A stretch of 37,988 nucleotides of DNA from positions 1 to 37,988 of IMG/VR virus record IMGVR_UViG_2737471821_000001; one strand, written 5' to 3'. The DNA comes from a virus. Its lineage: Duplodnaviria > Heunggongvirae > Uroviricota > Caudoviricetes. Under the pieces are notes generated by a model that saw nothing but the letters and a program-made list of their open reading frames with translations, was not told the DNA's origin and made no database searches. Shown piece after piece: positions 25,184-26,522 of this stretch; the stretch's first letter is position 1, and every line of letters starts with the position of its first letter. A program made the translations under genes and the position numbers.

Positions 25184-25332
25184 ATCACAGTTTTATGATA
25201 AAACTTTTACCTTGGTTTGGAGTGCTGTAGAGAGATATTTTAGGGGGGCGAGTAATTTTCTAAGCTGGAGCATATTGACATATATTATTTCGGATTTGCA
25301 AAATACATATTGTTACCATGGAGGAGACAAGC

Positions 25333-26493
25333 ATGGAAAATTTTGCAAATAAGTTAAAAATACACACAGAGCATGTTGCAAAAATGGGGGTGTTTTGTAC
25401 AACTGAAGAAACGACAAAACAAGCACTCATTATGCCATTACTAGATATTCTTGGTTTTACTCCGTATGATCCAAGAAAAGTCAAAGCTGAGTATAGTGCT
25501 GACTTCCCCGGGGTTAAGGCTAATGAACGGGTTGATTACGCTTTATTTTGTCATGATGTTCCTGTGATGTTCATTGAGGCGAAATCGTTTTCAGAACAAA
25601 TTGATAATCACTGCCCACAGCTATCAAGATATTTTAATTCAACACCGGAAGTTACTATATCAGCCATTACAAATGGTGTTGAATGGCGTTTTTTTACGGA
25701 TTTGAAACAAAAAAACATAATGGATTCAACGCCGTTTTTAAAAATAAGAATGGATTCTCTAACTCACTCCGATATTACACAATTATTTCGTTTTCGTTAT
25801 GATAAATTCAAACCAGAGGCTTTACGGACACTGGCTGAAGAAAGTGTTTATTTGAATTCATTTACTAAAACAATCAGTTCTAGTCTTCGTGAAGTTGATC
25901 TGGAGTTTGTTCGATATGTTGCTAGTCGTTCAAATATTGAGAGACAACTTAATCAGAGATTTCTTGAGTTCGTGACTCCATTAGTTAAACAGGCCGTTGA
26001 GCGCGCTGTTAGCGCAATGGTGGTTTCCGGGCTATCTACACAACCGGTAGAGCAAACTAAAGAAAATGATGCAACGGATACACAAGTTAATAACGCCATT
26101 GTTGATGAAGAAAACCCCAACATAATAACCACAGCCAAAGAATTGGAACTATTTGAAAGGGTAAAACAAATCATACAAACAGAAGATAATATAGAATATA
26201 AAGATACTGAGTCATATTTTGGTGTACTATTGAATGGTAAAACTAATAGATGGCTGTTAAGATTTTATGATAAAAAATCTTCATTTATAACATTACCTAT
26301 TTCGCTTAGTGAAGTTCAGTTGAATGAAATAAGACGAGCTCGACTTGATACGGATGGTAAAAGGATACATATAACTAATCCGGAAGATATACTTCGCATA
26401 TCTGGTTTGATTCTGGATTCATATGAGTATGTTAAAAATGATGATAATTTCCGCCGAGGGTCCAGAGTGAGCAGTTTAGAAGAGGTTGAATAA
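25333..26493 (+). CDS. PD-(D/E)XK (restriction endonuclease-like, HsdR-N-type) nuclease-domain protein with an unknown C-terminal domain; cargo gene
   Basis: ATG at 25333 with GGAGGAG RBS (the track ORF begins at 25318). N-terminal motifs RVDYALF ... PVMFIEAKS ... QLSRYF ... ISAITNGVEWRFF match the D-(D/E)xK restriction endonuclease-like core. AT-rich, own upstream AT-rich region and own terminator; interrupts the baseplate operon. Confidence 0.6.
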   Translation: MENFANKLKIHTEHVAKMGVFCTTEETTKQALIMPLLDILGFTPYDPRKVKAEYSADFPGVKANERVDYALFCHDVPVMFIEAKSFSEQIDNHCPQLSRYFNSTPEVTISAITNGVEWRFFTDLKQKNIMDSTPFLKIRMDSLTHSDITQLFRFRYDKFKPEALRTLAEESVYLNSFTKTISSSLREVDLEFVRYVASRSNIERQLNQRFLEFVTPLVKQAVERAVSAMVVSGLSTQPVEQTKENDATDTQVNNAIVDEENPNIITTAKELELFERVKQIIQTEDNIEYKDTESYFGVLLNGKTNRWLLRFYDKKSSFITLPISLSEVQLNEIRRARLDTDGKRIHITNPEDILRISGLILDSYEYVKNDDNFRRGSRVSSLEEVE

Positions 26494-26498
26494 GTAAA

Positions 26499-26522
26499 AA
26501 ACCCGCGAAAGCGGGTTTTTTA
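26499..26522 (+). terminator. intrinsic terminator after the PD-(D/E)XK gene
   Basis: AAAAACCCGC-GAAA-GCGGGTTTTTT, a perfect hairpin with flanking A and T runs (potentially bidirectional). Confidence 0.75.

Follow-up and report, generated by a model that had tools for sequence, protein, structure and literature searches.

The window analysed here, the whole 37,988-nt stretch of IMG/VR record IMGVR_UViG_2737471821_000001, is an Escherichia coli prophage related to phage Rac-SA53 (KU052037) and to record PP818812, with one end adjoining uspF/ompN. Its baseplate cluster carries a low-GC cassette with a single gene, coding for a protein of 386 amino acids (aa) with a PD-(D/E)XK nuclease domain. 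We consider it somewhat better than an even bet (about 0.55) that this protein is a solitary restriction-type nuclease, expressed in the lysogen and excluding foreign DNA, possibly in a modification-dependent manner. The context of its homologues, which are solo accessory genes of prophages and very often stand directly 3' of the lysogeny repressor, backs a role in defence with strong but contextual evidence.

The cassette and its slot in the baseplate cluster

In blastn comparisons, homology to related prophages stopped at about position 25194, 11 nt past the stop codon of the 115-aa gene on the left, and restarted at 26514-26526, 8 nt ahead of the start codon of the baseplate J gene on the right, so that the cassette is a cleanly bounded 1.33-kb replacement (Table 1). 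A preliminary description of the window had placed a single-gene AT-rich insertion with its own signals at 25184-26522, within about 10 nt of these boundaries. The GC content of the cassette (0.355) was the minimum of all 1331-bp windows of the prophage (mean 0.474, standard deviation 0.037), both 5-kb flanks being at about 0.47. At third codon positions (GC3), it was 0.25 in the nuclease gene against 0.44-0.59 in the adjoining genes.

An open reading frame (ORF) of the cassette spans 25318-26493 on the plus strand (391 aa). Translation likely starts at its second ATG, at 25333, because GGAGGAG precedes this codon at 6 nt and RefSeq starts the identical protein (WP_000426902.1) there. The gene ends in an intrinsic terminator, as proposed in the preliminary description: the hairpin folded at -17.4 kcal/mol (z = -5.8) and none of 200 shuffled sequences folded equally well. 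As the hairpin is symmetrical, it possibly acts in both directions.

The cassette displayed the features of a phage moron, namely a promoter (consensus match only), a terminator, deviant composition and presence/absence polymorphism inside a late operon. Like the morons of HK97/HK022-type phages, for which the concept was reportedly introduced by Hendrix and colleagues, it sits between late-operon genes as a unit of promoter, gene and terminator, deviates in base composition and has a patchy distribution among relatives. It differs from them in its site, which is a replacement site with alternative cargo and was never empty in the closest relatives listed.

About 100 of 5426 complete E. coli genomes matched part of the tail module, and 25 of these held the nuclease gene in the slot at 99% identity or more. 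A structural baseplate component was rejected on this proportion. In Rac-SA53 and PP818812, the same slot held two or three minus-strand genes, coding for an AntA-family antirepressor and proteins with no assigned function. Cargo varied in size in the other E. coli genomes listed and comprised AntA/AntB-family, LprI-annotated, Rha-family and hypothetical genes; an empty version of the slot was not found among the relatives listed. With alternative cargo between them, the 115-aa gene and the baseplate J gene are not adjacent in the closest relatives, contrary to what had been assumed in the preliminary description. The name "W-like" given there to the left flank agrees only with the position of the 115-aa gene, which had no match in a Pfam search. 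Cargo at fixed sites of prophage tail operons was also said there to consist commonly of defence or exclusion systems. The cargo of the slot is indeed variable, but the alternative cargo is antirepressor-type or uncharacterised and none of its proteins matched a PADLOC model; this makes the slot an accessory site of variable, mostly antirepressor-type cargo, not a demonstrated defence hotspot.

Among the alternative cargo, locus L001 carries two minus-strand genes (5125-5589 and 5608-6156; rac61 and rac62, 154 and 182 aa) with no Pfam or PADLOC match, while locus L006 carries a plus-strand gene (2977-3723, 248 aa) annotated as LprI family, with a weak GapR-like match only. The region that separates the 115-aa gene from the baseplate V gene is variable as well and forms a second such site, with a Rha-family regulator gene inserted in L006 and small ORFs that differ among relatives. 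At 24591-24624 of the window, this region contains a perfect 14-bp inverted repeat (GAACCCCCCGACTG-N6-CAGTCGGGGGGTTC).

Domains and family of the nuclease protein

A Pfam scan of the protein returned HSDR_N (5.6e-14) and HSDR_N_2 (2.4e-9) and nothing else. The four motifs singled out in the preliminary description (RVDYALF, PVMFIEAKS, QLSRYF and ITNGVEWRFF) were all present in the translation, and the likeness to type I restriction R subunits noted there was borne out by the Pfam match and by the catalytic residues. In an alignment of 51 family members (25-75% identity), E25, K29, D68, Y69, K84, Y100 and G115 were invariant, and E26, E82, Q96 and others were conserved in at least 90% of members. 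Judged from its residues, the protein has a full PD-(D/E)XK core followed by QxxxY, a RecB-family motif required for efficient cleavage by the EcoR124I HsdR (PMC2475608). Foldseek matched the nuclease domain to 3h1t, 2w00 and DrdV (7lo5).

The remaining ~230 residues, which the preliminary description had left without function, can be divided into a helical domain, a linker and a C-terminal domain. The helical domain, modelled with AlphaFold2 (AF2) at a high predicted local distance difference test score (pLDDT), is possibly a scaffold or oligomerisation domain. The C-terminal domain adopts a "double-wing" fold, and T267, E270, D291, Y295 and R310 were conserved there in at least 90% of the 51 members. 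Its fold suggests a putative DNA-recognition module. It resembles the C-terminal domain of T4 MotA and the YjbR/DUF419 and YdhG/DUF1801 proteins in fold, at only 10-14% identity, and no Pfam family was found with the domain alone. Sequence searches of the PDB with the whole protein, its N-terminal 151 aa or the family profile gave nothing meaningful. The NCBIfam HsdR equivalog matched at 18.9 bits, below its cut-off of 729, and over 56 of 1123 model positions, which means that the protein has no motor domain.

Table 1. Positions of the cassette, its signals and encoded domains, and of other features of the window
Feature	Position	Strand	Basis or remark
Cassette (whole replaced segment)	25195..26525	+	blastn breakpoints against loci L001, L002 and L006-L008; lowest-GC 1331-bp window of the prophage
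Sigma-70-like promoter candidate, TTGACA - 18 nt - CAAAAT	25275..25304	+	consensus scan, 10 of 12 positions; pattern match alone; predicted transcription start near 25311
Shine-Dalgarno sequence, GGAGGAG	25320..25326	+	read from the sequence
Coding sequence, 386 aa and stop codon (WP_000426902.1), solitary HsdR_N-family nuclease	25333..26493	+	
Residues 1-140, PD-(D/E)XK nuclease domain of HsdR/RecB type	25333..25752	+	Pfam HSDR_N, alignment, Foldseek
Conserved codons E25; D68; E82	25405-25407; 25534-25536; 25576-25578		
Conserved codons K84; Q96; Y100	25582-25584; 25618-25620; 25630-25632		
Residues 145-235, helical middle domain, long helices	25765..26037	+	AF2 model, pLDDT >88; pN 0.04 against saturated pS
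Residues 239-262, disordered fast-evolving linker	26047..26118	+	pLDDT <50 at residues 241-252
Residues 263-372, C-terminal alpha/beta domain, double-wing (YdhG/YjbR/MotA C-terminal-like) fold	26119..26448	+	
Intrinsic terminator hairpin, AAAAAACCCGC-GAAA-GCGGGTTTTTT	26495..26522	+	ends 11 nt ahead of the baseplate J start codon
Left flank, conserved 115-aa baseplate-cluster gene, PHROG 7986 (function unassigned)	24836..25183	+	
Right flank, baseplate J-family gene	26534..27760	+	Pfam Baseplate_J, 8.3e-8
RosmerTA anti-phage system, complete, two overlapping low-GC genes	31444-33236	+	right prophage end, after the tail-fibre genes

The domain combination had been called undescribed in the preliminary description, which was overstated. 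The PHROG profile phrog_4225 ("endonuclease") matched full-length at 4.7e-149 (residues 6-375 of the 391-aa ORF, profile positions 1-357 of 357). A collection clustered at 90% identity gave 1356 matches, mostly of 380-390 aa and from Enterobacterales, while representatives at 50% identity gave 3369 clusters with E<=1e-3, of which 293 had E<=1e-30; most were close to full length (345-420 aa). The three-part architecture is common to this PHROG 4225 or HSDR_N-plus-double-wing family ("prophage Lp2 protein 6"-type). RefSeq names the protein "type I restriction endonuclease", and a scan of IMG/VR with the window protein returned mostly the same prophage. The family is already catalogued and its architecture uncharacterised, and its member here would be a prophage-encoded restriction or exclusion nuclease. 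No experimental study of the family was found in the literature searched, and single-gene systems were explicitly left out of a domain-centric screen (NAR 2026).

PADLOC-DB v2.0.0 held no family matching the window protein at E<=1. Among the 51 family members, PADLOC gave only weak matches in the nuclease domain (type IIG REase in 11, mad2 in 5, and Cas4). In the same window, it recovered the proteins of a RosmerTA system as a positive control, namely RmrT (229 aa; PDLC03935 at 1.3e-59, nearly full length) and RmrA (368 aa, HTH_3 and Peptidase_M78; PDLC03949 at 1e-142).

Proportions of nonsynonymous (pN) and synonymous (pS) differences, calculated after Nei-Gojobori with homologues from other contexts, were 0.04-0.09 against a saturated 0.63-0.94 in all three folded domains. 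Such purifying selection indicates a gene functional along its entire length. The linker was only 25-42% identical in homologues whose domains showed 50-94% identity. At larger distances the C-terminal domain retained 49-53% identity and the nuclease domain 79-85%, and through this quicker divergence the C-terminal domain behaves like a specificity module.

Genomic contexts of the homologues and other genes of the prophage

Homologues were solo genes in accessory sites of unrelated prophages. A copy with 78% DNA identity neighboured the Q antiterminator of lambdoid E. coli prophages, on the opposite strand; one of these prophages carried stx2. In Salmonella, one copy occupied a lambdoid accessory region adjoining HigBA and an ORF6N protein, and a second stood just after the repressor of a Mu-like prophage. 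The Citrobacter and Photorhabdus copies were located 22 and 9 nt downstream of CI/LexA-type repressors. The Yersinia copy was part of a different baseplate cluster, of a myovirus, with an Arc/Mnt-type repressor 36 nt ahead of it and a P22-type antirepressor alongside. Members at ~31% identity occurred in the lysogeny module of a Firmicute-type prophage, and also close to a prophage integrase, next to an EcoRI-type methylase and a GmrSD_N-HNH protein. Some copies were chromosomal, with no mobile-element genes nearby.

The Yersinia enterocolitica prophage (L020 6472-8164, L021 3429-6065) harbors a P22 immI-like module inside an E217-like myovirus baseplate cluster. This module comprises Arc and an Arc/Mnt-type repressor, in L021 also a P22_AR_N antirepressor, the nuclease-family gene coming directly after the Mnt-like gene. 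The antirepressor cargo of the E. coli slot is a parallel to this arrangement.

One genome per species was scanned in a wider survey, and relatives were obtained from 178 genomes. Neighbours were tallied by naive ORF calling at the best 80 loci (51-71% identity, Gamma- and Betaproteobacteria), where related species of Photorhabdus and Xenorhabdus contribute many of the CI-linked loci. The upstream neighbour was co-directional in 69 of 78 loci, while downstream neighbours were co-directional in 39 and opposite in 32. About three in ten upstream neighbours (23 of 78) encoded HTH_3, in 20 of the 78 together with Peptidase_S24, as in CI/LexA-type repressors; the others were phage, toxin-antitoxin or transposase genes, and five belonged to the isochorismatase family. 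Neither a conserved downstream partner nor a methyltransferase appeared in the top families of the 71 downstream neighbours. Antirepressor domains were the commonest there (P22_AR_C at five loci and Bro-N at four), and N-type antiterminators occurred at two loci. Loci L063 and L071, which appear to be the two with Pfam N_peptide matches, showed the order CI, nuclease-family gene and Arg-rich N-like ORF, the nuclease gene being in the position of rexAB in lambda.

Relatives were also encoded in 19 deposited phage genomes, from phages of Klebsiella, Clostridium, Enterococcus, Streptococcus, Porphyromonas, Corynebacterium, Fusobacterium and Pseudomonas. The gene lay in the lysogeny module, just 3' of the repressor and on the same strand, in three of them: Klebsiella phage KpF5, S. 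pneumoniae phage IPP25 and Corynebacterium phage Juicebox.

Orphan DNA methyltransferases were observed within one or two genes of some members: the Mu-like prophage of Salmonella has a Dam-like MethyltransfD12, the Stx2 prophage a DNA methyltransferase, and a metagenomic prophage the EcoRI-type enzyme together with GmrSD_N-HNH (L015-L017 9230-10000, minus strand; L004 7130-8188, minus strand; L024 1852-3872, plus strand). They were sporadic rather than conserved partners, and could bear on the modifications that the nuclease tolerates.

Apart from the cassette, the window carries the complete RosmerTA system (Table 1), whose two genes RefSeq labels only "hypothetical protein" and "helix-turn-helix domain-containing protein". 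Compared with the near-identical prophage of E. coli RM11911 (L030 4215-12245), about 8 kb are missing at about 12319-12322, with a junction overlap of 4 nt. The missing segment runs from within the holin gene through the endolysin, the small and large terminase subunits and the portal to the DUF2213 gene. Since it is absent, the prophage may be defective, with the nuclease gene and RosmerTA intact. Relative to the RM11911 prophage, the window also has ~8.1 kb of extra upstream sequence. It differs from NZ_CP044313 upstream of about 12.9 kb, and RefSeq coordinates apply only from there onward. The absent segment includes a 478-aa gene after the large terminase subunit (L030 9845-11281), which RefSeq names "anti-CBASS protein Acb1 family protein"; from its position, it probably encodes the portal protein, and the Acb1 name looks like an annotation artefact. 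ARAGORN found three plus-strand tRNA genes in the window, Met(CAT) at 10002-10077, Arg(TCT) at 10080-10156 and Gly(TCC) at 11461-11533. In a related record RefSeq calls the first one tRNA-Ile, presumably assuming a lysidine-modified CAT anticodon.

Proposed function, alternative explanations and significance

The cassette probably arose as a horizontally acquired moron, an autonomous unit of promoter, gene and terminator that displaced an antirepressor-type module from the variable slot of the baseplate operon. The nuclease would be produced in the lysogen, where its fast-evolving double-wing domain may bind a feature of foreign DNA that enters the cell, the helical domain may position or oligomerise the protein, and the N-terminal HsdR/RecB-type domain would cleave the DNA with Mg2+. 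Superinfecting phages, and possibly plasmids, would thereby be excluded, while host and prophage DNA would lack the recognised feature. Self DNA must do so because there is no methyltransferase partner, and for the same reason a type IV-like nuclease, dependent on modification or structure, is the most economical version of this scheme, although this specific form is, taken by itself, less likely than not.

Known type IV enzymes (Mrr, McrA, MspJI, PvuRts1I/AbaSI and GmrSD/TgvAB) are likewise solitary, mobile-element-borne nucleases with no cognate methyltransferase, built from one nuclease domain and a separate domain for DNA recognition, which in the window protein is putative. It differs from them in having none of the known reader domains SRA, EVE/YTH, McrB-N, NEco, Mrr_N or DUF262. 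In a survey of PD-(D/E)XK proteins, COG4748 was grouped with HSDR_N and predicted to have a type IV role (PMC3424549). COG4748, of which the window protein is at most a possible member, has also been counted among restriction endonucleases (PMC8649781). A bolder version, which we hold doubtful, makes the protein the first recognised member of a widespread class in which a MotA-like double-wing domain, by reading hypermodified or otherwise marked phage DNA, directs an HsdR-type nuclease to it. Such a protein would combine a new type IV-like architecture with a new reader fold, and its gene would typically share a transcript with the prophage repressor and serve in superinfection immunity.

The placement next to repressors recalls lambda rexAB and P22 sieA beside immI, with which the family shares position and an implied expression from or next to the repressor operon, the nuclease-family gene following CI-type repressors at 9-31 nt. 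The resemblance is positional only, with no relationship in sequence or fold, and RexAB and SieA are not known to be nucleases. Lambda rexAB is a classic abortive system, and the equivalent position could point to abortive infection as the function of the window protein. A nuclease made in the lysogen would then be kept inactive, for example by its middle or C-terminal domain, until a phage protein or replication intermediate triggers an indiscriminate degradation of DNA that kills or arrests the cell. This draws on the same contextual evidence as exclusion of foreign DNA, and the lack of a methylase and of a known modified-base reader would fit a nuclease that relies on a trigger rather than on discrimination. 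That the C-terminal domain diverges faster is compatible with either. An abortive effector is the main rival of exclusion, and computation does not tell the two apart. We nevertheless find it unlikely, as the sequence holds no sign of a protein sensor and the C-terminal fold is nearest to DNA-binding double-wing domains.

A precedent for triggering is Upx, a single-gene anti-phage system of the PD-(D/E)XK superfamily, reported to be auto-inhibited until relieved by a phage protein (PMC13099982). In Upx, the canonical nuclease core is C-terminal and is joined by a second, atypical nuclease domain. Membership of the window protein in Upx was ruled out on this difference in architecture, and none of the PADLOC models, which should include Upx, matched it. 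Another single-gene system, FS_HsdR_like of DefenseFinder, with a validated HsdR-like protein, is reportedly encoded by a phage-inducible chromosomal island (PICI) and attributed to Fillol-Salom et al. 2022.

The nuclease might instead serve the phage in its own life cycle, for example in degrading host DNA, in recombination or in processing replication intermediates. Antiterminated late transcripts could read through into the gene, which lies on the strand of the late operon, and PHROGs and several depositors name the family simply "endonuclease". This is quite improbable: the gene is missing from about three quarters of otherwise near-identical prophages and is hence dispensable for the phage, and its commonest placement in the family is the repressor transcription unit, divergent from the lytic genes, which implies expression in lysogeny rather than in lytic growth.

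PD-(D/E)XK homing endonucleases exist, and a selfish, free-standing nuclease of this kind would cut cassette-free genomes at or near the insertion site with no benefit to the host. It would account for a single-gene insertion that is precisely bounded by conserved genes, brings its own promoter and terminator and has a foreign composition, and for the same gene at many unrelated intergenic sites in different phages. We rate it as very improbable, since no empty slot was seen among the relatives listed and the insertion sites have no common target. Furthermore, placement after repressors in several phyla and stable chromosomal copies argue for a selected cellular function, and purifying selection has been strong on all three domains over long distances.

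A remnant or subunit of a type I restriction-modification system, suggested by the HSDR_N match and the RefSeq product name, is scarcely credible. The protein does resemble HsdR (EcoR124I, PDB 2w00; V. vulnificus fragment 3h1t), with which it shares the Pfam family HSDR_N, the fold found by Foldseek and the same succession of motifs, an acidic residue in the first helix, D, ExK and then QxxxY. In place of the superfamily 2 (SF2) motors, it has helical and double-wing C-terminal domains; with neither these motors nor HsdM/HsdS partners, ATP-driven translocation is impossible. The 386-aa protein has no helicase or translocase domain, and hsdM/hsdS genes were found neither in the annotation of the window nor among the 78 upstream and 71 downstream neighbours of homologues. 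The full-length architecture, conserved in thousands of clusters, and the purifying selection show that it is not a fragment, and a piece of a type I system is effectively refuted.

The RefSeq name "type I restriction endonuclease" is misleading, because the protein has neither a motor domain nor HsdM or HsdS partners. The gene is a well-supported and readily testable candidate in a very large family, and as one more nuclease-based candidate it comes as no surprise. If not protective, it would be an ordinary phage accessory nuclease. If exclusion of foreign DNA is true, the double-wing fold would be a new DNA-recognition module for restriction-type enzymes, and a widespread nuclease would occupy the position held by rexAB in lambda. 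Should lysogens prove to be protected, a family of thousands of clusters from prophages of Proteobacteria, Firmicutes, Actinobacteria and Bacteroidota would join the anti-phage systems.

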